Of a DNA stretch of 64,000 bases, positions 3,647 through 58,993 are shown in pieces (position 1 is the first letter of the stretch; each line of letters opens with the position of its first letter). The position numbers and the translations under genes are program-made. Source of the stretch: a virus (Duplodnaviria; Caudoviricetes); the IMG/VR virus record IMGVR_UViG_3300035182_002389, positions 1 through 64,000 of that record; one strand, given 5' to 3'. The notes under the pieces are model-generated. The model saw only the letters and a program-made list of their open reading frames with translations, had not been told where the DNA came from and made no database searches.

Positions 3647-3858
3647 CCTCCAAGGAAGTGCTGAAGAAGGTCTGCAAGACCTGCAAGGTCGAGTTCGGCG
3701 GGGAGTCTGAGGGGCGCGCCGAGAGCGCCCCTCAGCGGGGGTTCGGGGGCAGAGCCCCCGACGAATGGTGCAGCGGAACGCTGCCTCGGGAGGGTTCGGG
3801 AGGGGCGAGCAGCCCCTTCCGAGCGGGTGAAAAACGTTCGCGTCAGGTGCTGCCGTGA
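3643..3858 (+). CDS. truncated zinc-ribbon paralog whose 3' part is a family B repeat
   Basis: MTSKEVLKKVCKTCKVEF is nearly identical to the start of the next gene, then the frame runs through the repeat. Confidence 0.55.
   Translation: MTSKEVLKKVCKTCKVEFGGESEGRAESAPQRGFGGRAPDEWCSGTLPREGSGGASSPFRAGEKRSRQVLP
3700..3822 (+). repeat. Family B palindromic element inside CDS
   Basis: gggagtctgaggggcgc..gcgcccctcag / gggggcagagccccc / gggagggttcgggaggggc..gccccttcc; near-identical to 3993 and 11258. Confidence 0.9.
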
Positions 3859-4319
3859 CGTCCAGGGAAGTGCTCAAGAAGGTGTGCAAGACCTGCAAGG
3901 TCGAGTTCGTCATCCCGCCAGACATGGAGGCTTTCTACGTCGGCAAAGGTCTGCACCTTCCCGCGCGATGCAAGGCTTGCCGTAAGCCCGGCAGGGAGTC
4001 TGAGGGGCGCGCCGGAAGCGCCCCTCAGCGGGGTTTGGGGCAGAGCCCCAACGAAAGATGCAACGGAACGTTGCCTCGGGAGGGTCTGGGAGGGGCGAGC
4101 AGCCCCTCCCAGGCGCACGAGTGGAGAGAAGAGGCCACCAAGAACAAAGCCCTCATGGCCGCGAACGGTGGCAGGCCGCTCGTTCCGACCGACGCCGAGA
4201 TGGCGCCTGACTGGAAGAAGGGTTGCGAGGTGTGCGGCCAGAAGCCCACGCTACCGCTCACGGGGCTCTGCGGCCCTTGCACCTTCGGCGAGGCTGACAC
4301 GGCAGGCGGCAACTGGTGA
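3855..4319 (+). CDS. zinc-ribbon domain protein with in-frame repeat insertion
   Basis: CKTCKVEF..FY..KG..P.RCKACR resembles the zf-trcl type probable zinc ribbon; second Cys cluster at the C-terminus. Confidence 0.7.
   Translation: MTSREVLKKVCKTCKVEFVIPPDMEAFYVGKGLHLPARCKACRKPGRESEGRAGSAPQRGLGQSPNERCNGTLPREGLGGASSPSQAHEWREEATKNKALMAANGGRPLVPTDAEMAPDWKKGCEVCGQKPTLPLTGLCGPCTFGEADTAGGNW
3993..4112 (+). repeat. Family B palindromic element, 120 nt, in-frame (40 codons)
   Basis: Encodes RESEGRAG...ASSPSQ between zinc domains; matches the intergenic copy at 11258. Confidence 0.9.
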
Positions 4320-4329
4320 GGAGGCGATC

Positions 4330-4644
4330 GTGAAGTACAGCGACGAGATGCGCGCGGAGATCAGCAAGGACGCGGTGGGCAAAGTCGTCGAGTCGCTCGA
4401 CTGGTGCCCCGATTTTGTCGGCGGCTATTGGGTGATGGCCTTCAAGGACAACACCGAAATCTGCTTTCGGATGACGGGCGAGCCGATGTACACGCGCGAG
4501 TCGACCAGCGAGCAAGCGAAGAACAAGGTCGTCGAGTCGCTCACGTGGGACGCCGGGGGCCGTGGAGGGGGCTACTGGACCATGAGGCTGAAGGGCGGCG
4601 CGGAGTTCTGGTTTCGGCTTCGCCTGATGGCCGAGCTGGTTTGA
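4330..4644 (+). CDS. hypothetical protein with an internally duplicated domain
   Basis: KVVESL.W....GGYW.M..K...E..FR occurs twice. Confidence 0.65.
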   Translation: MKYSDEMRAEISKDAVGKVVESLDWCPDFVGGYWVMAFKDNTEICFRMTGEPMYTRESTSEQAKNKVVESLTWDAGGRGGGYWTMRLKGGAEFWFRLRLMAELV

Positions 4645-4657
4645 ACGGAGACGATTG

Positions 4658-5431
4658 ATGCCGACGACGAGGAATGACATTCGAGCGTGGCTCAAAGAGG
4701 CGGAGGAAAAAGGAGCGACCCATCTCATCGTCGCGACCGACGACTTCGGCCACGACGACTACCCCATCTACGTGATGCCGGGCGAAGACCCTCACGTGAG
4801 GGCGCAGAGGCTCGGCGATATGCAGAGGGTCATGGAGGTGTACGCGATGCACCTCGACCTCGGAGATCAGCTCGCCGAGCGCCGTTCGTTCCACTACGAG
4901 AGCGCTGAAGAGACCGCCCGCGCCATCTCGGCGGGGATGCCGAAACCGTCTAAAGGACCCACCATGCCAGGCCCCGGCCCCGCCCCGAAGCAGCCCCCTC
5001 CGAAGAAGCCGACCGCCGAGCAGGAGATCGAGACCCTCACGCGCGCGAAGGCGGAGTGGGAAGCCGCCTATCACGGCGCGCGGTCCGAGATCGAAACGAT
5101 GCGGGTCGGCCTCACGATCGCGGAGAACGATCTTGCGAAAGCGCTCGCCAAGAACGCGGACCTCGCGAGCCGCGTCGGCAAGCTCGAACTCGCCCTCCAG
5201 GTCAACAGGGGCGCCGCCACGACGCACAAGGAGATGGTCGAAAAGATGGTCGGGTCCGCTCGCGAGATGATCGAGCAGGCCCAAGCCGTCATCAAGGAGC
5301 AGACCGCCACCATGGCGAGCCAGCGCGAGCAGATCGGCAAGCTGCTCGACATGAACAAGCAGCTCATCGAGATGGCCCCGCGACGCGAGACGCGATCGAC
5401 GCTCGGCAACCCCGTGCTCGGCGAGGAGTGA
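4658..5431 (+). CDS. hypothetical protein, Pro-rich linker and coiled-coil C-terminus
   Basis: Long ORF with typical codon usage. Confidence 0.7.
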   Translation: MPTTRNDIRAWLKEAEEKGATHLIVATDDFGHDDYPIYVMPGEDPHVRAQRLGDMQRVMEVYAMHLDLGDQLAERRSFHYESAEETARAISAGMPKPSKGPTMPGPGPAPKQPPPKKPTAEQEIETLTRAKAEWEAAYHGARSEIETMRVGLTIAENDLAKALAKNADLASRVGKLELALQVNRGAATTHKEMVEKMVGSAREMIEQAQAVIKEQTATMASQREQIGKLLDMNKQLIEMAPRRETRSTLGNPVLGEE

Positions 5432-5432
5432 G

Positions 5433-5798
5433 ATGTCCGACGTCGAAATCGTGCACCTTGGTGTCGCCCCCGATCGGGTGAAGAAGCTCGTCGACGAACG
5501 CCTCTACGACACCTACTGGCGCGCGGTCGAACATTTCGGAACGACGGACCTCGTGGTGTTCCTCGAAACGGAGCGCGTCGAAAACGCCGTGAACGTTCTG
5601 CTTCGCAAGACGGTGATCGAGGACTTCGATGCTTCGTCTCGAATCGTGGAGATGATGTCCGTGCCCGCGTCAGAAATGGGTAATCCGTTGGGCGAAGGCG
5701 CGAGCACGTTCTGGTTCGTCGCGATCTTTTCCGACGGCGCGAGCGTCGTGAGGGTCGTGGCAAAACGGTTGAGCGGCGATTCTTCGGTTTCGTCGTAG
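5433..5798 (+). CDS. hypothetical protein
   Basis: GGAG RBS. Confidence 0.6.
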   Translation: MSDVEIVHLGVAPDRVKKLVDERLYDTYWRAVEHFGTTDLVVFLETERVENAVNVLLRKTVIEDFDASSRIVEMMSVPASEMGNPLGEGASTFWFVAIFSDGASVVRVVAKRLSGDSSVSS

Positions 5799-5806
5799 GG
5801 TGGGCC

Positions 5807-6541
5807 ATGAACGACATCGAAGCGACCAAGTTCTACATCCGCCACCGTGACGGCTATCCCGAGATGGAGATGCAGGACTGCGCGCGGCGCGGTTTCCACG
5901 CGCTCAACGTCGAGACGGTGCCGTATCACTGGATCGACGACATCGACGACATGAAGGATCTCGGGCCGACCGTCGGCGTGGCCGGGTACATCGGCGACGT
6001 TTGGAAGGCGCTCAAGAAGCTCGGCAAGCCGATTCCGCCCGCCCTCGACTACCCGAAGGAGCTGGAGGAGTTCCTCGGGCGCAAGGTGTGGCCCTCGACG
6101 CTCGGGGAGCTGCGCGGGCGCGTCTCGACGACCTTCGTGAAGCCCGTCGAGCAGAAGGCGTTCTCGGGCTTTCTGTGGAGCCCTGACGGGCAGAGCCGCA
6201 TGCGCCTCGTCGCGCACGACGACGAGACCCCCGTCTGGTGCTCGGAGCCGGTCGAGTTCGTCTCGGAGTATCGAGCATTCATCCTCTACCGGAAGATCGT
6301 CGGCTGCCGTCTCTACAAGGGCGACTGGTCGGTGGTCCCCGCGCGCGCGACGGTCGAGGCCGCCGTCAAGGCGATGGGGAGGAAGGCTCTACACGCCTAC
6401 GCCCTCGACTTCGGGGTCACGCGAGACGGTCGCACGCTGCTCGTCGAGGCCAACGAAGGCTACGCCCTCGGCCACTATGGGCTGCAAGACGTCACGTACG
6501 CGCGAATCCTCTCCGCCCGCTGGCACGAGCTGACCTCGTAG
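5807..6541 (+). CDS. ATP-grasp domain protein (DUF4343/R2K-like)
   Basis: FVKP, SEPVEFVSEYRAFI, YALDFGV..LLVEAN motifs. Confidence 0.75.
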   Translation: MNDIEATKFYIRHRDGYPEMEMQDCARRGFHALNVETVPYHWIDDIDDMKDLGPTVGVAGYIGDVWKALKKLGKPIPPALDYPKELEEFLGRKVWPSTLGELRGRVSTTFVKPVEQKAFSGFLWSPDGQSRMRLVAHDDETPVWCSEPVEFVSEYRAFILYRKIVGCRLYKGDWSVVPARATVEAAVKAMGRKALHAYALDFGVTRDGRTLLVEANEGYALGHYGLQDVTYARILSARWHELTS

Positions 6542-7584
6542 GAGAAGGCCATGCAGATCAACGTGTCGTGGAAGCTCGGGGCGACGGACGTCGTCAGGAT
6601 CCTGGCTTTCGAGAAGTCGAACCACGGGCGGGCCCTGCCGACCTCTCGCAAGCGGACGATGGAGATCGTTCGCAATCATCTCCGCGCGTACGGCGACGGC
6701 GCTTCGTACGAGGAGATCCAGGACGAAGACGACGCTGCGGCGAAAGGAGCTTGAGATGAGCGGCAAGAACAAGCCGGGCGCAAAGAAGCCCCGCTGCGAA
6801 ATCTGCAAGACGACCGAGAATGTGACCCTCGCGCCCGACCCCTTCAACGTCGACGTCTATGACGACGCGTCGCCGCGCTACCTGTGCGACGAGTGTCGTT
6901 TGCGACGTCGCGAAGACATCTGAGGCCGCATGACCGAACCGAAGACGTTCAAGGCCCATCCGGGATGTCCCCTCTGCGACATCCTCGTCAACCCTCCCCC
7001 GAACGACGCGTCGCTGCCCCTGCACGTCTCGGGCTTCACCCTCGCGCTCATCGCGGTGCAGGAGTTCACGCTCCCCGTGCTCCTCGCGACTCTCTGCCCG
7101 ACCCACGCCGACTTCTACAAGCGCGCTCGCGCGAGCGTCAGCGAGAAGCCGTGATGGCCGCCAAGAAAGCGCAGAAGGCCAAAGTTCCTCGGGCGAAGAA
7201 GGTGAAGGAGTACGTCCCCTCTTCGCCGCCCGAGCTGGCTGCGCAGGGTTCGTGCTGCCCGCACTGCGACACGGTGCACAGCTTCCCCATCTACGCCGCA
7301 GGCGTCGAAGACTGGCAACGTAGTCGCCGTCGCGGCGACAGCAACGATCGCTGGATCCCCTGCGGCGCATGGCGCGCGGTTGCGTGCGAGTCGCCCTACG
7401 ATTGCGTCCGATCGCTCCGCAACACGATCGAGAGCATCCAGGCCGACGTGGAGAGCTTGAACGAATGGCGGAGACGATAATCGCCCGAGGATTCGTGCTT
7501 GGATCGATGGATAACGAATAGTCTTGATCCTTACATCACCTCGTGTAGCATCTCGCTATCGAACGGGGCGAAAGGCGGGCGTCG

Positions 7585-8777: not shown

Positions 8778-8811
8778 CATGCTTCACGTGGTGATGTACA
8801 TGTTTATGGAC
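8774..8811 (+). promoter_or_regulatory. sigma70-like promoter with GTACATGTTTATGGAC motif
   Basis: TTGACA at 8774; motif shared with 2158 and partly with 53148. Confidence 0.55.
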
Positions 8812-8852
8812 TCGCAGGCGAACCGGGCGATCACAAGGGGCAAGGCGAACAC

Positions 8853-11255
8853 ATGAGCAAGGCGAAAGCGGCGGGCGGCAAGGGCAAGACGGTCGTGGTG
8901 GAGGTCACCTCGGCGAAGATCGCGGACGCGCTCTACCTCGTGAGCCACCCGCTCCCCGAGGACGCGGTGAAGGCGGCGCCTCCGAAGCCGCCTCCGACGC
9001 ACCACATCGTCGTCGTCGACTGTTCGGGCTCGATGTACGGCGAGCTGCCGAAGCTGCGTGAGCAGCTCAAGAAGAAGCTGCCGAAGATGATCGGCGAGCA
9101 GGACACGTTCTCGTGCATCTGGTTCTCGGGCAAAGGCCAGTGCGGCGTGCTGCTCGAAGGCGAGAAGATCGGCAAAGCGACCGACCTTCAGACCGTCAAC
9201 AAGGTCATCGACAAGTACCTTCAGCCGATCGGGCTCACCGGCTTCAAGGAGCCGCTGGAGCTGGCCGCGGATCTGTGCGCGAAGCTTCTGAAACGCGATG
9301 AAGAATCGCGTGGGGGGCTGCGCACCCCCCACGCCCCCGCGCCACCTGCGGTGGGGCAAATGTTGGGGGAGGGGGCCGCCCCCCTCCCCCAAACCCCCTC
9401 TGCGTTCAGCCTGCTCTTCATGAGCGACGGCTGCGACAACCAGTGGCGCAAGGACGAGATCCTCACGGCGGTCGAGAGCGTCGGTGGCAAGGTGCAGGCG
9501 GCGACCTTCGTCGAGTACGGCTACTACGCCGATCGAGCCCTGCTCGCCGAGATGGCGGCGCGCTCCAGCGGCGCGCACATCTTCGCGGCCGACTTCGACG
9601 CGTTCGTCGTCGAGCTGGAGAAGAACCTCGGCAAGCACCCTTCGGGTCAGCCGCGTATCGACGTGCGCCTCGGCGGCGACGTCATCGGGGGGTTCGCCTT
9701 CGCGCTCGACGCGGGCGACGGCAAGACGTCGGGCGACGTGCTCGCGCTCGCCGCCAACGGCGAGACGGTCTACGTGCCCGACTCGATCAGGACCATCTGC
9801 TACCTGTCGCCGACGCCCGTCGGCACGGTCATCGAGACGCGCAACGATTTCAGCGCGCACTACGCCGCGCTCGGCCTCTACGCGACGCGCATGAAGAGCG
9901 ACGTCGTGTTCGCGATTCTGAAGGACCTCGCGGACGTCGACTTCATCGACAGCTACTGCAACTGTTTTGGCAAGCAGGCCTACTCGGCGTTCACCGCGCA
10001 GGCGAACGAGGCCGCGTTCGACGCGAAGAAGCGCTTCCTCAAGGGCCGTGACCCGAACCGCCTCCCGCGCGAGGACGCGTTCACGGTCGTCGAGCTGCTC
10101 GATCTGCTGAAAGAGAGCGGGAGCCGGCTGCTGCTCGACAGCGACGCCTTCGTCTACTCGAAGATCGGTCGGGCTCGCGTCGACACCGACCCGGACGCGC
10201 TGAAGTTCGAGCGCATCGCAAAGCCCGACGGCTACGTGATCCGCGGGCTCACGTGCAACCAGGAGCGCCCGAACGTGTCGGTGCTCGTGATCCGGGAGGG
10301 CACGGTCGACCTCACGAAGAAGAACCCGCCGGAGCAAGAGCCCGGCAAGATGGCCCTGCCGTCGCCGTTCCCCACGATCCAGTACAAGAACTACGCGATC
10401 GTGGAGGGAGGCCTCGTGAACGTGCGGTTCCTTCCCGCGCGCATCAAGGGAAAAACCTTCAAGGAGCTGCTCGCAGTCTACAAGGACGAGCGCCTGAAGT
10501 TCGGCGTCTTCTCGAACCTCGACCTGACCAAGCCTCCCGTCGTCGCCGACGACGCGGACCTCGACGTCACGTTCGATCTGCTCGCGATGCCGATGATGAA
10601 CCGCAAGAGCGTGAAGGAGACCAGCGCGGTCGACTACTTCACGCAGTGCTACGCGCTCATCGCCCAGAAGGCGCGCCAGAAGGTGTTCAACGCCTACGCC
10701 GAGGAGCTGCTGCCCGAGAAGATCGGCAACGAGGGCTTCGCCTTCATGTACGGCGAAACGGTCGCGGCGTTCCTCAAGAACGTCGGCATCGACCAGAAGA
10801 ATGGCCATCGCGCGCTGCACACGACCGGCGCGGTGAAGAGCGGCGACTTCTACATGGCAAAAAAGCTCGCGGGCGCCCTGAAGGGCCTCGGCACGCCGGC
10901 GAAGGCCTCCCTTCCGACCCTCGCGGAAGCGAAGGCGGGCAAGGGCGGCGCCGGCGGCAAGCTGATGAAGCCGATCGTCGACGAGGTGGAGAAGTTCCTC
11001 GCCTCGAACGCCTACAAGAAGTCCGCGAACCCGACCGCCGTGCTCACCGCGTGGCTCGATGCGGAACGTAAGGCCGCCATCGCCGCGACGCGGGCGGGGA
11101 TGCTGTCGCTCTCGAAGCTCACGTTCAACGTCATCGTCGGCCAGGTCTGGTTCTCGGAGTTCAAAGACTTGAGCGAAACGACCATGACGCTGAAGCTCGG
11201 CGGCGTCGACATCGCCTGCAACGCGAAGCTCGAAGAGGAAAAAATCGAGCTGTGA
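8853..11255 (+). CDS. von Willebrand factor A domain protein (800 aa)
   Basis: MIDAS DCSGSM, then T, and LFMSDG; long uncharacterised C-terminal region. Confidence 0.8.
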   Translation: MSKAKAAGGKGKTVVVEVTSAKIADALYLVSHPLPEDAVKAAPPKPPPTHHIVVVDCSGSMYGELPKLREQLKKKLPKMIGEQDTFSCIWFSGKGQCGVLLEGEKIGKATDLQTVNKVIDKYLQPIGLTGFKEPLELAADLCAKLLKRDEESRGGLRTPHAPAPPAVGQMLGEGAAPLPQTPSAFSLLFMSDGCDNQWRKDEILTAVESVGGKVQAATFVEYGYYADRALLAEMAARSSGAHIFAADFDAFVVELEKNLGKHPSGQPRIDVRLGGDVIGGFAFALDAGDGKTSGDVLALAANGETVYVPDSIRTICYLSPTPVGTVIETRNDFSAHYAALGLYATRMKSDVVFAILKDLADVDFIDSYCNCFGKQAYSAFTAQANEAAFDAKKRFLKGRDPNRLPREDAFTVVELLDLLKESGSRLLLDSDAFVYSKIGRARVDTDPDALKFERIAKPDGYVIRGLTCNQERPNVSVLVIREGTVDLTKKNPPEQEPGKMALPSPFPTIQYKNYAIVEGGLVNVRFLPARIKGKTFKELLAVYKDERLKFGVFSNLDLTKPPVVADDADLDVTFDLLAMPMMNRKSVKETSAVDYFTQCYALIAQKARQKVFNAYAEELLPEKIGNEGFAFMYGETVAAFLKNVGIDQKNGHRALHTTGAVKSGDFYMAKKLAGALKGLGTPAKASLPTLAEAKAGKGGAGGKLMKPIVDEVEKFLASNAYKKSANPTAVLTAWLDAERKAAIAATRAGMLSLSKLTFNVIVGQVWFSEFKDLSETTMTLKLGGVDIACNAKLEEEKIEL
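9309..9398 (+). repeat. Family B-related palindromic element, 90 nt, in-frame in the vWA gene
   Basis: ggggggctgcgcacccccc / ccacctgcggtgg / gggggagggggc..cccctccccc hairpins; encodes RGGLRTPH...PLPQTP just before the SDG strand. Confidence 0.85.
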
Positions 11256-11257
11256 GC

Positions 11258-11376
11258 AGGAGTCTGAGGGCGCGCTGAGCGCCCTCAGCGGGGGTTCGGG
11301 GGCAGAGCCCCCCGACAGAAGATGCAACGGCACGTTGCCTCGGGAGGGTTCGGGAGGGGCGAGCAGCCCCTCCCGG
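11258..11376 (+). repeat. Family B palindromic element, intergenic
   Basis: Directly after the vWA stop; near-identical to 3700 and 3993. Confidence 0.9.
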
Positions 11377-11556
11377 GCGAAAGATAGGGTGCCCAAGTGA
11401 GCGTCGACAACGAAGACGATGAGGACGCGGATTTCAGCAAGAAGCGTGGCGAGCCTCTCGCGTTCTCGGAAGAGGACATGGACGCTCGTAAAGAACCGGG
11501 CTTCGTCGCTCAACGTGTCGACGCCGCTGCGGACAAAGGCGCGAGCGGCAGGTGGG

Positions 11557-19584: not shown

Positions 19585-19869
19585 ATGTCTCAGCCCTATT
19601 GCTACGCGGCCTCTCCCGTCTACATGCGAACGACCCTCGTCGCGCACACGAACGAGACCTACGTGCCCTCGTCGACCGTTCCCGCAGCGACGCCGCTGCC
19701 GATGGGATGGACCGTTCTTCAGTCGACGTCGCTGCCTCCGCGCTGGAAGCCGTGCATCGGCTGTGGCGGCACGGGCGGCTCCATGCAACCTGTCGATTGG
19801 GCCGTTCGGCCGCAGTGGATCACGTGCATTCACTGCGGCGGAGGGTGCGGGATGTTCTTGCCGGGCTAG
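19585..19869 (+). CDS. small protein with C-terminal CxxCxGxG zinc finger
   Basis: CIGCGGTG...CIHCGGGCG. Confidence 0.55.
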   Translation: MSQPYCYAASPVYMRTTLVAHTNETYVPSSTVPAATPLPMGWTVLQSTSLPPRWKPCIGCGGTGGSMQPVDWAVRPQWITCIHCGGGCGMFLPG

Positions 19870-20046
19870 CCCGTTCCCGTTCCCGTTCCCGTTCCCAGCG
19901 CGCCGAAGGCGCGCGTTCCCGTTCCCGAATCTCGTGCCGAAGGAGCGTCGAGAGCGAGAGCGAGACGAGATCGGGCAGCGGGAACGCTCGCTGCGCTCGC
20001 TGGGAACGGGAACGGGAACGGGAACGGGAACGGGAACGGGAACGGG
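19870..20046 (+). repeat. Family A element: (GTTCCC)n ... (GGGAAC)n inverted arms with internal cGAAg hairpins
   Basis: 4 GTTCCC units at left, 7 GGGAAC units at right, gcgcgccgaaggcgcgc hairpin, conserved core gagacgagatcgggcagcgggaacgctcgctgcg. Confidence 0.92.
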
Positions 20047-27875: not shown

Positions 27876-27906
27876 CAGGGTCCGGGGCGCGCTCGATTTC
27901 GTCCTC

Positions 27907-28026
27907 GTTCCCGTTCCCGTTCCCAGCGCCGAAGGCGCGTTCCCGTTCCCGAAACCCGCCGAAAGCGAGACGAGATCGGGCAGCAGGAACGCTCGCTGCG
28001 CGAGCTGGGAACGGGAACGGGAACGG
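27907..28026 (+). repeat. Family A element, intergenic
   Basis: Same arms and core as 19870. Confidence 0.92.
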
Positions 28027-28594: not shown

Positions 28595-28659
28595 AAGCCG
28601 GGAAGACTGCGAAGCCTGCGAAGCTGCCGACGCTCGCCGAGATCGAGGTCGCGCTCGGC

Positions 28660-28716
28660 GAGGTCGGGCAGCGGGAACGCTCGCTGCGCGAGCTGGCAAC
28701 GGGAACGGGAACGGGA
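28660..28716 (+). repeat. Family A right-half fragment
   Basis: gaggtcgggcagcgggaacgctcgctgcgcgagctggcaacgggaacgggaacggg. Confidence 0.85.
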
Positions 28717-36340: not shown

Positions 36341-36490
36341 GGCGACTGAATCCCGCCAAAGGCGACTGAATCCCGCCAAAGGCGCCCGATCCCGCGCCGA
36401 AGGCGCGCCCGATCCCGCGTCGAAGGCGCGCCCGGTCCCGGTCCCGATCGCCCGGCCCCGGCCCCGGTCCCCGAGACGAGACGAGACGAA
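36341..36490 (+). repeat. Family A variant ((GGTCCC)n arms, cGAAg hairpins) preceded by a 20-bp tandem duplication
   Basis: ggcgactgaatcccgccaaa twice (36341-36380), then cgcgccgaaggcgcg, cgcgtcgaaggcgcg, ccggtcccggtccc, gagacgagacgagacg. Confidence 0.85.
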
Positions 36491-36566
36491 AAGGACGACC
36501 TTCGGTCGAGCACGGGCTTTGCCCGAGGACGCGCCTTCGGCGCGAGGACGGCCTTCGGCCGAGGAA
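36491..36566 (+). repeat. Family C array of four mini-hairpins
   Basis: Units [G/C]A-CG-stem-TTC/TTT-stem-CG-AG with different stems. Confidence 0.88.
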
Positions 36567-38730: not shown

Positions 38731-40781
38731 ATGCTGAGTCGAATCACAGCGCAGCGCAAAAGGCGCTGTTTTATGGTCTACGACATGGAGTGGATCCCGG
38801 GCCAGTTGGAGGTCCGTCTCCTCGGCCTGTACGACGGCGACCGATACCGCGCGTTCCACAAGGTCGACGACTTCCTCAACGCGGTGCTGGTGCGTGAGAA
38901 CGCGGACAAATGGCTCTACGCCCACTACGGCGGCATGGCCGACGCGCAGTTCCTCCTCCAGCGCCTCGCCTCGCGCGCGGACGAGGGCTTTCAGATCGAC
39001 GCGTCCTTCTCGGGCTCGTCGGCCATCATCATCCACGTCACGCGCGGCGAGCTGAGCTGGCACTTCATCGACAGCTTCTGGCTGCTGCGCGATCGGCTCT
39101 CGAAGATCGGCGAAGCGGTCGGCCTCGAAAAGATGGGCGAAGAGTACGCCTGCGACAACTTCCCGAACTGCGGACACGTCGACAGCAACGAGATGAAGTA
39201 TCTCGATCCCTGCTCGTGCACGCACTCCTATGGAGCGCACGACAAGCAGCCGGGCACCAAGGACCTCGCGTGCCTCGCGTGCGGGTGCAGGAAATACGAC
39301 GGCGATCACCCCTACGCGATGTGCGTCTTCTGGGCGCCGATCGCCGAGCTGACGACGTACAACGAACGCGACTGCGTCATCTTGTACAAGGCCATCGAGC
39401 GCTTCGAGCAGACGCTGCTCGATCTCGGCGGCCAGCTCCAGATGACGATTGCCTCGTGCGCGATGCACCTCTTTCGTCGCAAGTACCTCCAAGACGACAT
39501 TCGCACCGTCGCCGCCGTCAACGGGTGGGCTCGAAAGGCCTACACGTCTTCACGCGTGGAGGTGTTCCAGACCCACTGTGAGAACGCTCACTATTTTGAC
39601 CTGAACTCGTCTTTTCCGTTCGCGATGACATTTGACTGTCCTGGCAACGTGAAGAAGATGCGCGCGAAGAAGCTGCCTCCCTACGGCAGCATCTACATCG
39701 CCGAGTGCGAGATCATCGTGCCCGAGATGTACCTGCCGCCGCTGCCGTTCCGGCACGACGGGCGCGTCTTCTTCCCGACGGGCACGTGGACGAGCTGGTT
39801 CTCGAACATCGACCTGGAGCTGCTTCAGAAGCGCGGCGGACGAATCGTGAAGGTGATTCAGTCCATCGAGTTCGAGAAGCAATCCTCTCTTCGCGAGTAC
39901 GCGATCGACATCTATGCAAAGAGAAAAGCCGCGACGACGAGCTACGAAAAGCTCATCCTCAAGTATCTGTTGAATAGCCTTGGGGGCGGGATGCGGATGG
40001 CGCCCTTGGCCGCATCCCGAGCCCCCTCTGGCGCCCATAGGAACTCTACGGAAAGTTCGGCGAGCGCACCGAGAAGACCTCGATGCTGCTCCATCCAACG
40101 TCGACCGACTGTCCTCACACGCCGAAGCATCGGTGCGACAGTTGGCCCATCTGCCCGCACGCCATCGAAGGCGTCGAGTGCAACCTCTGCATCCAGATGC
40201 TGTTCCCTGGGTGTTTGCTCGTCACCAACGAGGTCGAGCTGGCGCACGAGTGGGTGCCCATCGCGGTCCACATCACGGCCACCGCCCGCAAGAACCTCGA
40301 AGGTCACCTCTGGAATGCGCAGGAGGACATCTACTACTGCGACACCGACAGCGTCATCACGACCGTGCAGCTCCCGAGCGATCCGACCACCCTCGGCGCG
40401 CTCAAGCTCGAAGACGAGATCCGTAAGGGCGAGTTCATCGCCTGCAAAATCTACGCGGTCGAAGTCATCGACGAGAAGACTGGCCACGGTCACTGGAAGA
40501 CCAAAGCAAAAGGCTTCTCCAAGATGAACTACAGCAAGTTCGTCGACGTGAAGCTCGGCAACGACATCAAGCTCGCGCGCATGACGCGCATCCGCGAGCT
40601 GTATCGAAAGGGCAAGATCGTCCCCGAGGAGAACATCGTCGCCAAACGCCTCGTGCAGAAGTGCATGGCGAAGCGCTGCATGCTCCCGTCGGGACAAAGC
40701 CGCCCTTGGACGATCGAGGAAATCCAGAGAAACCGCATGGATCTCGGCATCGACATCGATCCCATGATCCTGTCGGATTGA
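38731..40781 (+). CDS. polB: family B DNA polymerase, reading frame interrupted by a 65-nt insertion in motif B
   Basis: ExoI YDME, ExoII HYGGMAD, ExoIII YNERD, motif A DLNSSFP and KYLLNSL in frame +1; LYGKFG, YCDTDS, KIY and KAKG in frame +3. Confidence 0.9.
39982..40046 (+). other. 65-nt hairpin-forming intervening sequence between CTT and CTC Leu codons
   Basis: gggggc-gggatgcgg / ccgcatccc-ga-gccccc stem; removal restores LNSLYGKFG. Confidence 0.85.
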
Positions 40782-47319: not shown

Positions 47320-47540
47320 CCCGCCGAGAGTCGAGGGCTCGGCCCGATGCGCGAGTCGGGTGAGGGTAGCGGTGAGGGGCCCGCACAACCTCCCCCTGAG
47401 CCCGCGCCCGTCCAGCGCACGCACGGCCTCGGGTGAAGGCTGCGGCGCCGGGGGCACGGGCACCCCACGGCGCTGCTGGCTCAGATTCTAGGTGGAGCGG
47501 GTGGCTGCGGGGCGCGTCCAGCGTGCGAAGCACGCGCTGC

Positions 47541-47590
47541 CCGTTCCCGTTGCCAGTGAGCGAAGCGAACGTTCCCGTTCCCGCTCTCGC
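47541..47590 (-). repeat. Family A right-half fragment, inverted
   Basis: Reverse complement matches the copy at 53448. Confidence 0.8.
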
Positions 47591-48537: not shown

Positions 48538-48556
48538 GTGCGCCTCACACCTCGCG

Positions 48557-48640
48557 AGACGAAAAGGACGCGCCTTCGGCGCGAGCACGACCTTCGGTCG
48601 AGGACGCTCCTTCGGAGCGAGGACGCGCTTCGCGCGAGGC
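48557..48640. repeat. Family C array of four mini-hairpins
   Basis: gagacgaaaaggacgcgccttcggcgcgag cacgaccttcggtcgag gacgctccttcggagcgag gacgcgcttcgcgcgag. Confidence 0.9.
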
Positions 48641-51438: not shown

Positions 51439-53148
51439 ATGAAGAAACCGAACGCGGGAAGCGAAAAGAACGCGCCGTTGGCGCGAGCACGCGCTTCGCG
51501 CGAGGACGCTCCTGCGGAGCGAGGACGCTCCTTTGGAGCGAGCGGCGAGAAGCAAAAGTACGTCGCGGGGCGCCCCGTGCGGGTCGGCGACAGGTTCGGC
51601 GAGCTGACCGTCACCGAGCAGATCGAAGCGCCCGACCACAAGACCTACCAAGGTCGGCACTGGCTCTGCACGTGCGACTGCGGCAACCCTGCGATTCGCA
51701 CGACCACGACGCTTCAGCAAGCGCTCGCAAAAGGGCACGTCTCTTCCTGCCGAGAGTGCTGGCTGGAGCTGCTCCGATCGCGCACGGCGGAGACGTTCGA
51801 CCAGGAACGAACCAAGACGCGCACCGCGCTCGCATCGCTGTGGGCGCAGCATCGAACGCTCTACAGCGTCGCCTACGACGCGCGCGAAGAAGAACGGATT
51901 CGAGACGCCATCGAAGAGGACGGGATCCCGATCCGGTCGGAGGAGTCGCTCTCCGAGCAGTACGCCGTCGAGCCCTCACTGCTGAACGTCGACGCTCCCT
52001 CGTCGGCGGAGACGACCACGGCCCCGGTGCAGCGCGCCGCGTACCTCTATCCCGTCGGAGGCGGCGAGCTTTGCTGGGCGTGCATCACGTGTGGCGAGAC
52101 CTTTTCGCGAGGGTTCGGGTGCACGCTCTGCATCGAGCCCGTCTGCATGGACTGCGTGAGGAGCGAGGCGCACGTCCACACCGAAGACGAAGACGGCCTG
52201 ATGCTGCATCAGATTGCGGCGGAGTTCGATCGGAGCCGCGAGCGCGTCCGGCAGATGGAGACGCAGGGTCTCACCAAGCTGCGTCACCTCCACATGGCTT
52301 CACTCGTCAGGACCCTCGGGGCGGACTACGTGAGCGTGCACGCGTTTCTTCGCGCCTTGCACCCCGAGCTTCTCGACGTCGGCGAGATGCTTGCTGTGCT
52401 CGACTGGCGCGAGCGCATGGCGCGCGAAGCGAAGGTCGCCGCGTACAGGGCCGCAGAGGAGGCGGCCGAGAGGGCCGCAGAAACGCGGAGGATCATCGAA
52501 GAGCGTCGCCAGGCCAAGCGTGAAGAAGAACAGCGTCGCCGGGCCGAGCTTGCTGCCCAACCCGAGGAAGTGAGGGCGCTTCGTATTCAGCGCAACCTCG
52601 CGCGTCGTGAGACGGAGACGACGCGGCTGGCGAACGATCTCGCAGCCTGGCACGCGAACCTCGAAGCGTTGCGTGCGAGCGAGCCCGAACGAGATCGGCG
52701 CGCGGCCGAGGCGAAGAGCGCGCTCGAACTCGAACGCATCGAGAACGAGAAGAGGCGCAGCGCCGAGGTGATGGAAGAGGCCCGTAAGACCCTCGCCACG
52801 ACCTCCGCCGTCTTCGTCCCGAGCAAGCTCAGGGTCGCCGCGCGCAAGCAAGACCTCCTCGCGATCCTCATGCTCCCCGTCGGCGAGTTCGATTTCAGCG
52901 AGGAGGTGCGAGGCGCACTCGTCGAGGCCGGCGCCGAGTACATCGGCGATCTTCTCTGCGAGCTGTCGTGCCCGCCTTCGCGATGGGTCGGACCTCTGCT
53001 CGGCGCGGAGGTGCTGTTCGCGTTGCGAGAGGTCGGCCTCAACTTCGGCGTCAACATCTACGCGCTCACGGGCAGGAAAGGCTCGGAGCTGCCGTTCGCG
53101 ACCCCGTTCGTCAAGCGGATGGGGAAGGTTTCAACCAAAAAACATTGA
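51439..53148 (+). CDS. multidomain transcription-factor-like protein (CxCxC zinc module, sigma70 region-4 HTH, coiled coil, RNAP alpha-CTD-like domain)
   Basis: GELTV..WLCTCDCGN; LHQIAAEFDRSRERVRQME..GL.KLRH; LPVGEFDFS..GALVEAG..IGDL. Confidence 0.7.
   Translation: MKKPNAGSEKNAPLARARASREDAPAERGRSFGASGEKQKYVAGRPVRVGDRFGELTVTEQIEAPDHKTYQGRHWLCTCDCGNPAIRTTTTLQQALAKGHVSSCRECWLELLRSRTAETFDQERTKTRTALASLWAQHRTLYSVAYDAREEERIRDAIEEDGIPIRSEESLSEQYAVEPSLLNVDAPSSAETTTAPVQRAAYLYPVGGGELCWACITCGETFSRGFGCTLCIEPVCMDCVRSEAHVHTEDEDGLMLHQIAAEFDRSRERVRQMETQGLTKLRHLHMASLVRTLGADYVSVHAFLRALHPELLDVGEMLAVLDWRERMAREAKVAAYRAAEEAAERAAETRRIIEERRQAKREEEQRRRAELAAQPEEVRALRIQRNLARRETETTRLANDLAAWHANLEALRASEPERDRRAAEAKSALELERIENEKRRSAEVMEEARKTLATTSAVFVPSKLRVAARKQDLLAILMLPVGEFDFSEEVRGALVEAGAEYIGDLLCELSCPPSRWVGPLLGAEVLFALREVGLNFGVNIYALTGRKGSELPFATPFVKRMGKVSTKKH
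51463..51545 (+). repeat. Family C array, in-frame in the N-terminus of the 51439 gene
   Basis: Four units incl. gacgctcctgcggagcgag; encodes KNAPLARARASREDAPAERGRSFGAS. Confidence 0.8.
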
Positions 53149-53173: not shown

Positions 53174-53447
53174 GAGCGTTCCCTCGCGAGGGTCTGAAGG
53201 AGACGGTATGGGCGAGACGTGCAAGCTGAGGGCGTGGGGGTCGGGCGACAAGGAAGACTGCGGCTCGCCGGCGGGCTCGCACGGCTACTGCCAGAAGTGC
53301 TACCCGCTCGTGCGAGGTGGCATCCTCGCGCGCATTCGAGAGGCCGAGCGCGACCTCGAATCCGACAGGTTGGAGCTGCGCCAGCTCGAAGCGGCAGAGG
53401 CTCGCGACATCGCCAAGCGCTGCTTCGGCGGAGACATCTGAGGCAAG

Positions 53448-53523
53448 GCGAGACGAGATGGGGAACGGGAACGCTCGCTTCGCGAGCTGGCAACGGGAAC
53501 GGGAACGCTCGCTTCGCGAGCTG
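53448..53523 (+). repeat. Family A right-half fragment with internal duplication
   Basis: gggaacgggaacgctcgcttcgcgagctg twice. Confidence 0.85.
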
Positions 53524-53537
53524 TGGAGAAGGCCATC

Positions 53538-54172: not shown

Positions 54173-55180
54173 ATGCGCCTTGGATGGATCACCGACCCCC
54201 ACATGAACTTCGTGAGCACGCTCGACTGGTGGCGCGAGCTGCTCAAAGAGGGCGACGACGCCTACCTCATCACGGGCGACATCGCGGAGGCCTCGTCCAT
54301 CATCCCGTCGCTCCAGGCGCTCGCGGCGGAACTGCCCGCCGGCAAGGTCATCTACTTCGTGCTCGGCAACCACGATTTTTACGGCTCCTCGATGCCGGGC
54401 CGTCCGAGGGCGACCATCGCGGACACGCGCGCGAGGGTCGCACACTTCGCGAAGTACGAGCCGAAGCTCGTCTACCTGCACGACCTCGATCCCTTTGCCA
54501 GCGCGCCGAAGGCGCGCGTTCCCGTTCCCGTTCCCGAATCCCGCGCCGAAGGCGCGTCTCGTCTCCCTGCGCTGGGACGAGACGAAATCGGGAAGGGGGA
54601 ACGCTCGCTGCGCGAGCTGGAAACGGGAACGGGAACGGGAAACGGGTACGTCGAGATCGCTCCGAACACCGCGCTGGTCGGCGTCGACGGCTGGTACGAC
54701 ACGCTCAACGGCGACGTGAAGAGGAGTCGCTGCGGACTCGCGGACTTCCACCTCATCCCGGACATGAACTGCCCGGCGAAGGAGAGGAACGCCCTCTGCC
54801 AGACCCTCACGATGATGGACGCCGTGCGGCTCCAGAAGATGATCGAGAACGCGCTCGGCGACAAGCGCGTCGTCGAGCTGGTCGTCGCGACGCACGTGCC
54901 GCCGTTTTCGGGCGCGGCGTGGCATCTCGGCGAAGTGAGCGACTCCGAGCACCTGCCCTACTTCTCGAACCGCCTCGTCGGCAAAGCCATCGTCGAGTCG
55001 ACCGAAGACTTTCGACAAGCCGGCGGCAAGGTGACGGTGCTGTGCGGCCACTCGCACTCGGAGGGGAAAATCTATCCCCACCACAACCTCAAGGTGCTCA
55101 CCGGCGCGGCCGAATACTACGCGCCGAAGAAGCACATGACGCTCGCGCTCGGCGAGCTTGTCCGTTCGGAGAACTGGTGA
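54173..55180 (+). CDS. calcineurin-like metallophosphoesterase with in-frame repeat insertion
   Basis: TDPH, TGDI, LGNHD, THVPP, CGHSH motifs. Confidence 0.88.
   Translation: MRLGWITDPHMNFVSTLDWWRELLKEGDDAYLITGDIAEASSIIPSLQALAAELPAGKVIYFVLGNHDFYGSSMPGRPRATIADTRARVAHFAKYEPKLVYLHDLDPFASAPKARVPVPVPESRAEGASRLPALGRDEIGKGERSLRELETGTGTGNGYVEIAPNTALVGVDGWYDTLNGDVKRSRCGLADFHLIPDMNCPAKERNALCQTLTMMDAVRLQKMIENALGDKRVVELVVATHVPPFSGAAWHLGEVSDSEHLPYFSNRLVGKAIVESTEDFRQAGGKVTVLCGHSHSEGKIYPHHNLKVLTGAAEYYAPKKHMTLALGELVRSENW
54497..54646 (+). repeat. Family A element, 150 nt, in-frame (50 codons)
   Basis: Encodes ASAPKARVPVPVPES...RELETGTGTGNG between YLHDLDPF and YVEIAPN. Confidence 0.92.
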
Positions 55181-55289
55181 CCTTCCCGGCGGGCGACCGA
55201 AGGTCGCGAGCCGCCCGATCCCGCACCGAAGGTGCGCCCGGTCCCGGTCCCGTTTTCCCCGGTTCCCGGTCCCCGCTTTCCCGTTTCTG
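55181..55289 (+). repeat. Family A variant, intergenic
   Basis: gcgaccgaaggtcgc and gcaccgaaggtgc hairpins, ccggtcccggtccc units; similar to 36381. Confidence 0.8.
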
Positions 55290-55301
55290 TAGGAGGACTC
55301 G

Positions 55302-55744: not shown

Positions 55745-56458
55745 ATGAAGTACAAATCGAGCCGGCCGGGCGGAGGGGGAGATTGCGCGACGTGCAAGCA
55801 GAGCACACTCGCACACGTGTGGCACTGCACGGGCTGCGGCAAAGAATCGAAGATCATTCGCCTGGACAAGCCCATGGCGGAGGCTGAGCCCGCGTGTTCG
55901 TGCGTCGACACTCTCATCCTTCCCTACTGCCCAAAAGACGTGCGAAGTCTGACTCAAGAGGACCTCGACGCCGACGATCTTCTGTCCGAGAAGCTCAGAC
56001 AACTCTTGTGCTTGGGCCCGGGGCCCTACGAGACCGCAATCTCGTGGATGCGATGGGAGCTGGAAGAGGTTGGACGGATGCGCGAGGAGATGGAAGAGAT
56101 CGCCCACCTTCGCAAAATGGAGGCGGCGCAGACCGACGAAGACCTCATCATGATCTTCCTTGGCGCGCTCTCCATCTTCCACGGCGCGACGACGGACGAA
56201 GCTTCCCAAACGTCGGCAAGCAAGAGCGTCGACGAGGCGCTCGATGCCCTTCGCGAGCGCATGAAGCGCCTTCGCGCGGTTGCCGTCGCCGCAAAGAAGG
56301 CGCGCCGCATCATCGAGTCTGAGGAGGATATTATCGACTCGTTGCGCGCGGGCTACGACGAAGAGAATGCGAGCCTCCGCTTCTCCAGGTTCCACGAGGC
56401 GCTCGCCGACCTGCGCGCGCACGACATGAATCCGATCGGATCGGTGAAACCAGCATGA
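55745..56458 (+). CDS. hypothetical protein with N-terminal Cys cluster
   Basis: CxxC..H.WHCxxC. Confidence 0.6.
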   Translation: MKYKSSRPGGGGDCATCKQSTLAHVWHCTGCGKESKIIRLDKPMAEAEPACSCVDTLILPYCPKDVRSLTQEDLDADDLLSEKLRQLLCLGPGPYETAISWMRWELEEVGRMREEMEEIAHLRKMEAAQTDEDLIMIFLGALSIFHGATTDEASQTSASKSVDEALDALRERMKRLRAVAVAAKKARRIIESEEDIIDSLRAGYDEENASLRFSRFHEALADLRAHDMNPIGSVKPA

Positions 56459-57399
56459 GTGAAAAGTCCGAAGACCCTCGCGAGGATGAAGGTCGCTGGT
56501 CGCGCTACCGACCGGGCGGCAAGGAGTTCACTTCGGAATCCGAAGTGCTCCGCAAATGCACGAAGTGTGGCCACTTCGAGTGCCCTTTCTGCCGCATTTG
56601 GTGCGACACCTTCATTGACCATGAGGACGATCCGTCCATCGAAGAAGGCGACCACGAGATGTGCTGTGATGGGGAGTGCACCTACGACAGAGAGCCCGAC
56701 CCGAGGCTTGACGCCTTCCTCGGCGCGCACGAAGGTCACACTCTCGGCGAGCGTGAGGACGGGGCCGTCCTCGCCTACGAAGAACCGCCGCTGACGCCCG
56801 AGGAGCTGGCCGAAAAGGCTGCCCAGAAGGCGCGCGACGAAGCGGAACGACTCCACAAGAGAACGAGGCGAGCCATGCGTGAAGTTCTGAGCAAGACGGT
56901 CAAGGCGGCGCTCAAGGCAGTGGGCAAGGACGGCACGGGGATCTACCTCGTCGTCGACTTCGGGGAAAAGGGCGTGATGAGCGCCATCCTCAAGGACGAC
57001 CAGGACCCGACGGCCCTCGACCGCATCCACAAGAAGATCGACGAGGATTGGGCCAAGCCGCCCTCGGCCGATGCCGAGCGCTCGACGACGGTCGTCGTGC
57101 CGATGGACGAGCGCATCACGGACTCGGTCGCGCCTCCCCCGGGCCCGATGAAGGCCGACGACCCGATGAAGGCGGACGACCCGCTGAAGCCCGCCTGCGA
57201 CGCCACCATCGCGTCTGCGAAGGACGAAGAGGCCAAGCGTGAGGCGCTCATCGAGCACGCGCGCGCGTGGGTCAAGGACCCCGAGAAGAACGGCGGTCTC
57301 GAATGGCTCCAGAACACGGGCGCGGACGCGCTCGCCGCCCTCTTCACCGTCATCGACCGCGAACCCGAAGCGCCGGAGTTCGACGCGGACAGAGGATGA
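56455..57399 (+). CDS. hypothetical protein with Cys cluster and MKADDP repeats
   Basis: ATGA overlap; coding-like. Confidence 0.65.
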   Translation: MSEKSEDPREDEGRWSRYRPGGKEFTSESEVLRKCTKCGHFECPFCRIWCDTFIDHEDDPSIEEGDHEMCCDGECTYDREPDPRLDAFLGAHEGHTLGEREDGAVLAYEEPPLTPEELAEKAAQKARDEAERLHKRTRRAMREVLSKTVKAALKAVGKDGTGIYLVVDFGEKGVMSAILKDDQDPTALDRIHKKIDEDWAKPPSADAERSTTVVVPMDERITDSVAPPPGPMKADDPMKADDPLKPACDATIASAKDEEAKREALIEHARAWVKDPEKNGGLEWLQNTGADALAALFTVIDREPEAPEFDADRG

Positions 57400-57533
57400 A
57401 ACCGCGTGTTTCATGCGGCAAAAACTGCATGAACACGTCAATGGCTTGACCCCTTATCTATTTTGTGAAAGCCTCGGTTTCGCGGAACGGGCGGACCTGG
57501 GCACGGAGCGCTTTTGGCGCGAGGGGCAAGAGC

Positions 57534-58175
57534 ATGAGCGTTCACATCGGAGACCGTTTCGGGCGCCTGCTCGTCGTCGCGAACGGTACGGAGGGGCCGA
57601 AGCGGATCGTCACGGTTCTCTGCGACTGCGGGCAGAAGCGCGAGGTCCAGGCCGGCAACCTCACGGTAGGGCACACGACCTCGTGCGGCTGCTATCGCGT
57701 CGAGCAGGTCAAGAAGGCGACCACGACGCACGGACACCGCGCGGGCGAGGACACGACGCCCGAGTACGAGGCGTGGCGAAGCACGATCGCTCGCTGCTAC
57801 GACTCCGCGTGCGAGTCCTTCCCCCACTACGGCGGCAAGGGCGGCGGCGTTTGCCAGGAGTGGCAGTCGAGCTTCGCGGCGTTCCTCGAAGATGTCGGTC
57901 CGAGGCCCAGCGAAGATCACGTCATCAGCCGTCGCCGGCGCGACGAAGACTTCACCAGGGAAAACACGTTCTGGGCGACGCGCGCCGAGGCGGCTCGCAA
58001 CAAGTCGACCACGCGCATGTATGAGGTGAACGGCGTGACCAAGTGCCTCGAAGATTGGGCGACCGAGTACGGCATCGGGAAATCAACGCTCCACTATCGG
58101 CTCAAGAAGGGGCTCTCGATGCGCGAGGCCCTCGATCTTGGGCATGGTCGGTCGGGCCGCCCGCTCCACGCGTGA
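57534..58175 (+). CDS. HNH homing-endonuclease-like protein, active site possibly degenerate
   Basis: GRLLV..CDCG..SCGC..EY.AW...RCY..YGG.G..VC.EW..F..FL.D.G.RP; the expected DRIDN region reads SRRRRD. Confidence 0.75.
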   Translation: MSVHIGDRFGRLLVVANGTEGPKRIVTVLCDCGQKREVQAGNLTVGHTTSCGCYRVEQVKKATTTHGHRAGEDTTPEYEAWRSTIARCYDSACESFPHYGGKGGGVCQEWQSSFAAFLEDVGPRPSEDHVISRRRRDEDFTRENTFWATRAEAARNKSTTRMYEVNGVTKCLEDWATEYGIGKSTLHYRLKKGLSMREALDLGHGRSGRPLHA

Positions 58176-58888
58176 GAAGAGGTCATGGACGAATCGAACG
58201 AACCGGACCAAGTCGTCATCCGCGTCTCGCGCGCGAAGCTGACGAACCTCATCGCCGCACGCGACGCGTATCGAAAGGCGCAGCGCGAGAACCACGAGCT
58301 GAGCGCCGCGTTCGAGAAGGCCGGCGAAGACCTCGACCACGCGACGATGGATCTTGTCGCCACCGTCGCGACTTCGATGCTGCTCGATGGCCTCGACCCG
58401 AGTGAGGTCCCCGAGGCCGAGCTTCAGCAGATCCGCGACGCGTACGACGCCGCCCTCAAGGTGCCGAGCCACGACACGATCCAAGAGCTGTTTCGGCTCG
58501 GCATCAACGCGCAGATCCAAGCGAACGCGCTCTCCAAACGCATCAACAAGCAGGAGCAGCTTCCGTGAAGCCGATGAGCGAAGAGGACCGGACCTCGTAC
58601 TTCGTGAAGCTCGCGTTCCTGAAGGGTCGAAGGGTCGCAACTCCATCCGAGGTCCCGAGGCGCGACTTCACCAATCCCGAGAACCGTCGCGCGAACGCGC
58701 GAGGGACCATCAAGGAGAACTCCAGCGGCCATGGGCTCTGCTTCCTCGTCGAGTACGACGACGGCGGCGAGGGGTGGTTCGATGCCGACGAGCTGAGCAT
58801 CGATCTGTCCGAGCTGATGGGGACCAGTCGGTGAGCGAGCGGTTCGCACAGCGGCGCTAAAACAAGACGAGACAAGACGAGACGAGAG

Positions 58889-58993
58889 TGGGGCTGCGCG
58901 CCCCACACCCGCGCCACCTGCGGTGGGGCTCCTGTTGGGGCTCTGCCCCAAACCCCGCTGAGGGGCGCTTCCAGCGCGCCCCTCAGACTCCCC
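58889..58993. repeat. Family B hybrid element (vWA-type left half plus inverted 3993-type right half)
   Basis: ccacctgcggtgggg joined to the reverse complement of gggagtctgaggggcgc..ggggtttggggcagagcccc; preceded by agacgagac repeats. Confidence 0.88.

Follow-up and report, generated by a model that had tools for sequence, protein, structure and literature searches.

Copies and hairpin modules of Family B

The window analysed here is the first 64 kb of the 202,518-bp IMG/VR virus record IMGVR_UViG_3300035182_002389. Its subject is Family B, a dispersed, gene-less element of ~100-135 bp that consists of GC-rich hairpins and a purine-rich tail. The record has a G+C content of 65% and an estimated completeness of 94%, and the virus is present in metagenome runs from sediment and from microbial mats. 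No tRNA gene was found in the window, and a megablast search of deposited phages (INPHARED) gave no near match to it. Three plus-strand frames are concerned: a 71-aa open reading frame (ORF) at 3643-3858, also predicted by a gene caller on two contigs; the zinc-ribbon gene P0001 (3855-4319, 154 aa); and the vWA-type gene P0002 (8853-11255, 800 aa), which matches phrog_2426 (E 8e-152, three stretches). All three are open, as an earlier reading made from the letters alone (the sequence-only reading) had claimed.

A blastn-short search placed 12 copies of the element in the whole 202.5-kb record, six in the window and six beyond it (12-100, 3696-3830, 3989-4115, 9306-9410, 11256-11382, 58886-59000, 97604-97709, 101050-101137, 102341-102447, 111354-111462, 112091-112204 and 122528-122611). 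The window copies (c31, c3700, c3993, c9309, c11258 and c58889) are exactly the six that the sequence-only reading had located, and they are tied together by the direct repeat families D4 and D9 and the inverted families I1, I2, I4 and I15. The I1 pair joins 3989-4052 to 58934-58997 (64 nt, 97% complementary), whilst I4 and I15 connect the copy at the contig start to c9309 and c58889. In the window the 17-18 nt head of the first hairpin module, M1, has four occurrences and the 13-nt hairpin of module M6 has three; shuffling gives an expectation of 0.00 for each (100 shuffles for the M1 head).

The copies are assembled from six hairpin modules in three or four layouts, so that the interchangeable modules of the sequence-only reading are borne out. 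M1 has a stem of 10-11 bp (CTGAGGG(G)CGC) with GGAGT before it and a loop of 5-7 nt that is its most variable part. The other modules have the stem TYGGGG(G)C with the loop AGA (M2), GCARCG with GAA (M3), YYGGGAGGGGC with GAGCA (M4), TCGGGGGC or GTGGGGG with GCGCA (M5) and CCACC with GCA (M6). M2, M4 and M5 follow a common archetype, namely a G-run, TT and a hairpin whose 5′ arm repeats that G-run, and the element can thus be described as a short array of related hairpin units. The type I layout, M1-M2-M3-M4, is found in c3700, c3993, c11258 and one copy on a metagenome contig (L034). Type II, M1-M2-M6-M5 followed by a purine-rich tail of the GAGACGAGA kind, is found in c58889 and the six distal copies. 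Both variants of M1 are present in both main layouts, which points to module exchange or to repeated change. The longest perfect stems of the genome include Family B hairpins. The 5′ flank and 5′ arm of M4 (GGGAGGGTTYGGGAGGGG; 50-67, 3789-3806, 4079-4096 and 11343-11360) also form a canonical four-run G-quadruplex motif, which, judged from its letters, may compete with the hairpin.

On the plus strand, c3700 (3696-3830) has its four hairpins at 3707-3735, 3743-3761, 3770-3784 and 3796-3822, c3993 (3989-4115, in frame within P0001) at 4000-4028, 4035-4051, 4060-4074 and 4086-4112, and the intergenic c11258 (11256-11382), whose M1 loop varies in length between strains, at 11264-11288, 11296-11315, 11324-11338 and 11351-11375. 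The remaining plus-strand copy, c31 (24-84), has an M6 variant (CCACC-GCA-GGTGG, 33-45) and then an M4-type hairpin (57-83); on its left it is truncated by the contig start and by 20 C in a row. This run (4-23) has a very high depth from many unrelated contigs and is probably a sequencing or assembly artefact, and the assembly break at the contig start falls within c31. Two window copies lie on the minus strand. c9309 (9299-9400) lacks M1 and reads, along the plus strand, purine-rich tail, M5 (9308-9334), M6 (9342-9354) and M2 (9363-9392), the loop of which holds an additional, nested G5/C6 hairpin. The intergenic c58889 (58861-58997) reads tail (58861-58887), M5 (58888-58906), M6 (58914-58926), M2 (58935-58951) and M1 (58958-58986). 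The tail separates M5 from the upstream stop codon, and an ATG follows at 59037, 40 nt beyond the copy. The description of c58889 as a vWA-type module joined to an inverted 3993-type module was therefore apt, M5-M6 being joined to an inverted M2-M1.

Copies within and beside genes

The copy in the vWA gene is a true clean in-frame insertion, because both 13 homologs and a nearly identical strain lack the segment. c9309 encodes residues ~150-182 of the protein. Alignment with the 13 homologs (53-69% identity over the stretch) reveals ~31 extra residues in the window protein alone, between a conserved ...GLTGFKEPL...L block and the FSLFFMSDG strand. The extra stretch, 31-32 codons longer than in the homologs, coincides exactly with the element and its tail, the left flank of which (GAAGAATCGC) matches the tails of c112091 and c122506. 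Contigs from four other metagenome runs were then compared with the window. A 514-nt contig from run X5 follows the window over 8848-9268 with 9 differences in 421 bases, continues with 40 other letters and rejoins at 9405. The 40 letters are in frame and supply 13 homolog-like codons against the window's 45. The next X5 contig (9476-10662) has 3 differences in 1187 bases. The strain with the empty site, which comes from another metagenome, is thus ~98-99.7% identical to the window in the flanking contigs. An AlphaFold model of residues 1-330 (26 sequences, mean predicted local distance difference test score (pLDDT) 79.9) has a confident vWA fold in which the insert is coil (pLDDT 46-62) between the helix at 132-152 and the strand at 184-191; it is modelled as a disordered loop at a position where an insertion would be tolerated.

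The sequence-only reading had itself raised the alternative that such segments are ancestral protein sequence, to which chance GC-rich palindromes may be added. GC-rich DNA is often open in many frames: in this genome 65% of random 120-nt windows are free of stops in a random frame, so that an open frame by itself is unremarkable, and each Family B copy is stop-free in three or four of the six frames. However, copies at unrelated sites are 76-97% identical where chance would give none, and for the vWA gene the homologs and the near-identical strain without the segment have already refuted the idea, which we consider to have practically no chance of being correct. The multiple-of-three lengths of the in-frame copies are best read as survivorship; the inserts of 120 and 90 nt first reported are approximate only, that of the vWA gene being ~99 nt with its purine-rich tail.

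The zinc-ribbon gene contains c3993, in frame in the linker between two independent domains. P0001 begins with a complete treble-clef domain (zf_Tbcl, PF13451, residues 10-48, E 1.3e-5), continues with element-coded residues (~46-87) and ends in a conserved zinc ribbon. The treble-clef domain is widespread, also occurring in tandem and as stand-alone proteins of 52-69 residues. Fifteen homologs have only the C-terminal 45 residues, the zinc ribbon, in common with P0001, and its cluster mates have the same element. Therefore, the in-frame position of the copy stands but a clean insertion, as seen in the vWA gene, is not demonstrable from these homologs. As copies usually abut stop codons, the element may alternatively have fused two small genes to make P0001.

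Immediately upstream, c3700 forms the 3′ part of a truncated paralog, as the sequence-only reading had recognised. Codons 2-18 of ORF 3643-3858 (50 nt, 3646-3695) have ~90% DNA identity to the start of the zinc-ribbon gene. An in-frame gap of 81 nt relative to that gene follows, after which c3700 continues in the same frame as c3993 and forms the tail of the 71-aa product. The TGA of this ORF overlaps the GTG start of the zinc-ribbon gene. The last hairpin of the element marks the end of the tandem duplication unit, and beyond it c3700 and c3993 are followed by unrelated sequences. This boundary agrees with the suggestion that the element promoted the duplication, although it does not by itself establish cause. 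In runs X5 and X6 related strains leave the window sequence after 3609, and depth is zero over 4001-4400; the locus with two copies (3610-4400) is thus a strain-variable region.

Elsewhere the copies are found chiefly at the ends of genes. Approximately 7 of the 12 sit at a stop codon or shortly behind it, and in two of these cases the element itself supplies the stop. Of the others, one is intergenic between divergent genes, two are in frame in genes, one provides the end of the truncated ORF, and c31 is incomplete at the contig start. Both c11258, directly behind the vWA TGA, and c97604 begin at the stop codon of the upstream gene, and c122506 is 12 nt away from such a stop. Judged from ORFs only, the genes upstream of c101050 and c102341 end within the element, which provides their final codons and stop. 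Two inverted copies, c58889 and c112091, follow a stop codon at a distance of ~27 nt and lie upstream of two paralogs that are 43% identical. c111354 sits between divergent genes.

Stem pairing, related sequences and known signals

Pairing within the stems has been maintained as the copies diverged. Pairs were counted per module by script; MAFFT alignments put gaps wrongly in the G-runs. When each stem was scored within its own copy, 396 of 399 positions paired (390 Watson-Crick and 6 G-T, with 3 unpaired). With 3′ arms exchanged at random between copies of one module, mismatches averaged 66 (standard deviation 8.7, minimum 24), and none of 20,000 shuffles reached 3. The G-run and C-run of M1 match in length on both arms, 4/4 in five copies and 3/3 in six, and run-length changes in M2 and M5 are likewise matched. 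Base swaps are also found on both arms: T-A for C-G at the foot of M2, A-T for G-C in M3, and TC/GA for GT/AC in M5. The foot of M4 occurs as CT/AG, TT/AA and TC/GA, and also as TC/GG with an outer G-T wobble. In RNAalifold consensus structures, 3 of 36 pairs in type I and 4 of 31 in type II are changed on both sides. The copies are, however, kin in few subfamilies, so that these changes represent few independent events. The covarying stems that the sequence-only reading had quoted are real, with pairing kept through changes on both arms. Its further step, that the structure is under selection, holds only as far as pairing is concerned, since repair templated by the hairpin, or gene conversion, would produce this pattern with no selection involved.

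The spread of Family B is narrow, the element being absent from a relative and from other IMG/VR records. Exact-pattern scans of IMG/VR with M1, M4 and the M1-M2 junction matched no other record; an 18-nt M6 word gave six matches in unrelated contexts, which were judged to be chance. A relative whose vWA protein is 52% identical (contigs L030-L032) lacks the element. In the spacer after its vWA gene, where the window has c11258, this relative has CCGCCTTC-type short tandem repeats (L030:12277-12382), and different lineages thus put different repeats in the same spacer. Two contigs with the element, L034 and L035, were found in one JGI metagenome. The type I copy of L034 lies just upstream of a gene, on a contig without protein similarity to this virus.

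The second contig, L035 (1.4 kb), is 95% identical to 111271-112204 and holds counterparts of two distal copies, that of c111354 being identical and that of c112091 differing at 4 sites (4 of 232 bases overall). The gene between them is 7.3% diverged, and 16% at third codon positions, whilst its flanks are at most 1.7% diverged; elements and third codon positions differ significantly (Fisher test, p = 4e-8). In the virus this gene (111482-112060) has its ATG 16 nt after the element, with no Shine-Dalgarno-like motif. The second element of L035 is a hybrid, its M5 matching c112091 and its M6-M2-M1 matching c58889 at 4 diagnostic sites. Beyond the hybrid lies a homolog of the gene at 59037 (82% protein identity) and not of the gene at 112218. 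Such a hybrid at a gene-order breakpoint would be the expected product of recombination between two copies, although a chimeric contig could give the same arrangement. Short contigs hopping between copies (junctions 4049->11316, 9398->4030 and 11293->3765) were dismissed as repeat artefacts that provide no evidence of recombination. The earlier description of the element as recombinogenic thus has circumstantial backing, in three independent hints: the L035 hybrid, the diverged gene between near-identical copies, and the duplication unit that ends at the last hairpin.

A repeat with the same core was found in a cyanobacterium. When the M1 pattern (24 fixed bases) was searched against 185,579 species genomes, the one match lay on a contig of an Oculatellaceae metagenome-assembled genome (MAG). 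This MAG (JANRJA010000118.1 and other contigs; L033 and L036-L051) contains at least 24 copies of a dispersed repeat of ~170 nt. Its core has the M1-M2 layout: GGGAGT and a CTGAGGG... hairpin, then CG(A)GGGGGTT, a TGGGGG... hairpin and an AA end. Its 5′ part (…CACCCGCACTGG…GATGCGAAGCGCGCC…) is also conserved, and its tail is GGTTCTCAA. A profile built from 13 cyanobacterial copies hit 11 places in the virus and nothing else, namely ten M1-M2 copies and the M2 of c9309 (E down to 1e-5). The repeat was not found in 400 other sampled cyanobacterial genomes and has no Rfam match, and no copy lies within 1.5 kb of any of the cyanobacterium's 12 Y1 transposase genes. Given that the virus runs are sediment and mat metagenomes, the two may share a habitat. 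However, the difference in G+C content (65% in the virus, 49% in the cyanobacterium) argues against a host relation. The likeness could reflect either homology, through transfer, or convergent evolution towards a single recognition structure.

Several known classes of sequence were tried as identities for Family B. Rfam gave no match at gathering over the window, and with an E-value threshold the best score was 22 bits against cut-offs of 38-270. Intrinsic terminators were rejected: terminator-like sites are not in excess (9 against 10.3 expected), the sense strand of the elements has none and lacks T-runs, and Family B hairpins score only as antisense hits, with weak T-runs. Imperfect palindromes of the REP kind, for which 20-40 bp is typical, are present, but no GTAG/CGTC tag common to the copies was found at the hairpin feet, which read GAGT|CTGAGG, GGTT|YGGGG and GAT|GCAACG; c97604 alone has GTAG, contributed by the neighbouring stop codon. 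Family B lies mostly downstream of genes, as repetitive extragenic palindromes (REPs) and bacterial interspersed mosaic elements (BIMEs) do, but the record has neither their tag nor a REP-associated tyrosine transposase (RAYT, PF01797). A miniature inverted-repeat transposable element (MITE) was excluded, as neither terminal inverted repeats nor a target-site duplication is present, and an integron attC or recombinase-site cassette was rejected because the partner tyrosine recombinase (PF00589) is absent from the record. Mimicry of CRISPR repeats by an anti-CRISPR (Racr, PMC10651486) is unlikely, being disfavoured by the four different hairpins and by the copies in genes.

Two further repeat families were noted in the window. 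The first, a second and larger intergenic system (19867-20046, 27900-28026, 28648-28714, 47540-47589, 53442-53523 and 54492-54648, with further copies beyond the window), has runs of CCCGTT/GGGAAC hexamers flanking two short GC hairpins, in an arrangement of long inverted arms (34 nt and 97% complementary in I9). This system has the same purine-rich GAGACGAGA tail as Family B. The third family (36478-36551, 48553-48626 and 51455-51528; also 36383-36453 and 55212-55259) consists of three or four small hairpins in a row, with loops of the CTTCGG type and GAGGAC/GAGCAC spacers, and a related unit is built on CCCGATCCCGCGCCGAAGGCGCG.

Interpretation and known systems

Taken together, these data suggest that Family B is probably a selfish, dispersed mosaic palindromic repeat of the REP/BIME and Rickettsia-palindrome kind, residing in a virus of bacteria. 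The filled and empty vWA alleles establish that the element has moved, or has been transferred as a patch, and that it is tolerated in frame. The element is copied to new places within the virus lineage, and copies survive where harm is small: at or behind stop codons, between genes, and in a surface loop or an inter-domain linker, with the in-frame copies translated as floppy peptide. Two routes of spread are the most likely. A hairpin-specific enzyme, from the host or a co-infecting element, may act on single-stranded DNA. Such DNA is expected to be abundant, as the window encodes a DNA polymerase of the protein-primed type family B (39343-39987, PF03175, E 1.7e-27), which implies strand-displacement replication with long single-stranded intermediates. 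Alternatively, homologous recombination or gene conversion between copies of co-infecting relatives may reshuffle the modules and move neighbouring genes. Orientation follows position better than it follows the sense strand: in 11 of the 12 copies M1 comes first on the plus strand below 12 kb and on the minus strand from 58 kb on, a pattern that could follow the displaced strand in protein-primed replication but is confounded with gene direction.

Several observations weigh against a selfish mobile repeat. The empty and filled vWA alleles also differ on either side of the element, over ~30 nt on its left and 9 nt on its right, and only these diverged flanks, with no target duplication, were seen when the sites were compared. 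This is no textbook cut-and-paste footprint and patch-wise recombination fits it better. The ends of the element are not inverted copies of each other, and the 202-kb record yielded no Y1 transposase (PF01797), TnpB, HNH, GIY-YIG or tyrosine integrase (PF00589) in searches for which control genomes were positive. Moreover, in L035 the element copies are far less diverged than the gene they enclose, which hints at constraint or homogenisation and not at pure junk. Finally, M1 comes first on the sense strand in 8 of the 11 copies with clear context, and the M1-first strand has six G-T wobbles (at approximately five separate sites) against one A-C mismatch. This asymmetry is weak, but a strand bias together with a six-to-one excess of wobbles on the sense strand leaves room for a role at the RNA level.

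It is partly from these last points that the idea of selected transcript signals draws its strength. The hairpin arrays would then protect 3′ ends, act as factor-dependent terminators or pause sites, or mark points of RNase processing between genes, and the copies in genes would be recombination accidents. Most copies do lie directly behind stops or between co-directional genes, they follow transcription by 8 to 3, and between two strains they are far more conserved than nearby synonymous sites; REPs are thought to act in this way (PMC3733652). However, there are neither T-runs nor an excess of terminator-like sites, three copies are opposite in orientation and one lies in a divergent promoter region. 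Two copies lie within reading frames, one at codon ~150 of 800 and the other in mid-gene, and termination at such places would do harm. Furthermore, 12 copies serve roughly 250-300 genes, and one relative has none at all. We therefore consider transcript signals unlikely as the primary explanation.

Promoter-stem-loop cassettes of T4-type phages have been proposed as recombination sites for cassette exchange, and Family B might similarly be mainly portable homology, through which co-infecting relatives swap or relocate gene cassettes. The hybrid copy of L035 at a changed gene neighbour, the diverged gene between its copies with far less diverged flanks, and the duplication unit ending at the element would all follow, and the repeat-rich regions of pithoviruses are hotspots of rearrangement (PMC10664404). 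Yet every dispersed repeat recombines, so that exchange may be a side effect and not a function. Moreover, L035 is a 1.4-kb metagenome contig and possibly a chimeric assembly, and the joints between copies in the compared contigs are repeat artefacts. This is the less probable of the two alternatives, and we hold it to be rather improbable. A broader possibility, about as doubtful as transcript signals, is that the M1-M2 core is a cross-genome repeat family moved by a hairpin-recognising activity on single-stranded DNA, doubling in the virus as a site of cassette exchange.

If Family B is a selfish repeat, as we favour, it bears on how very large bacterial viruses acquire new peptide loops, fused genes and gene orders. 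The near-identical strain with an empty site provides an unusually direct proof of insertion, and finding the M1-M2 core in a cyanobacterium as well invites one to ask what agent carries such elements across genomes so far apart. There are practical consequences too: several C-terminal tails and one 71-residue ORF are element-coded, which matters for gene annotation, and contigs of these viruses break at Family B repeats, which matters for assembly.

Selfish palindromic repeats that enter genes in frame have been described in a small number of bacteria and, more recently, in amoebal giant viruses. Literature searches returned no report of in-frame palindromic invaders for a virus of bacteria, and the closest parallels lie in other hosts. 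The BOX elements of Streptococcus pneumoniae are built of boxA, boxB and boxC modules. They resemble Family B in having few sub-units in variable number and order, a stable secondary structure and mostly intergenic positions, but their sequence is unrelated, their host is a bacterium and not all of their modules are hairpins. Pithoviruses, which infect amoebae, carry MITE-like inverted-repeat invaders (their own M1/M2) in thousands of copies, making up to a quarter of the genome (PMC10664404). These, too, form hairpins, have spread through a large viral genome and mark where it is rearranged; in-frame insertion into genes is, however, not their hallmark. REPs and BIMEs are likewise short, GC-rich imperfect palindromes with stems of 5-13 bp in mosaic clusters (PMC3733652), mostly downstream of genes with some within, in which pairing is kept and loops vary. 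They differ in their GTAG/CGTC tags, in being inverted dimers of one unit where Family B joins different modules in a fixed head-to-tail order, and in their association with a RAYT, a gene that the virus record lacks.

Also close are the Rickettsia palindromic elements (RPEs; Ogata et al.), in-frame palindromic invaders being on record from Rickettsia and a few further bacteria (PMC10969869, PMC3733652). Like Family B, RPEs are palindromic sequences of ~100-150 bp, inserted in frame in unrelated genes and translated as an extra peptide, with some copies intergenic and no transposase of their own. The hallmark of an RPE, an in-frame segment in a conserved gene that is absent from the orthologs, is found in the vWA gene. 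No sequence similarity was noticed, no RPE sequences having been compared, and the Family B peptide is conserved only in the three copies read in the same frame. An RPE is, moreover, one long palindrome in a bacterial host, whereas Family B is a mosaic of exchangeable hairpins, present in 12 copies in a virus.

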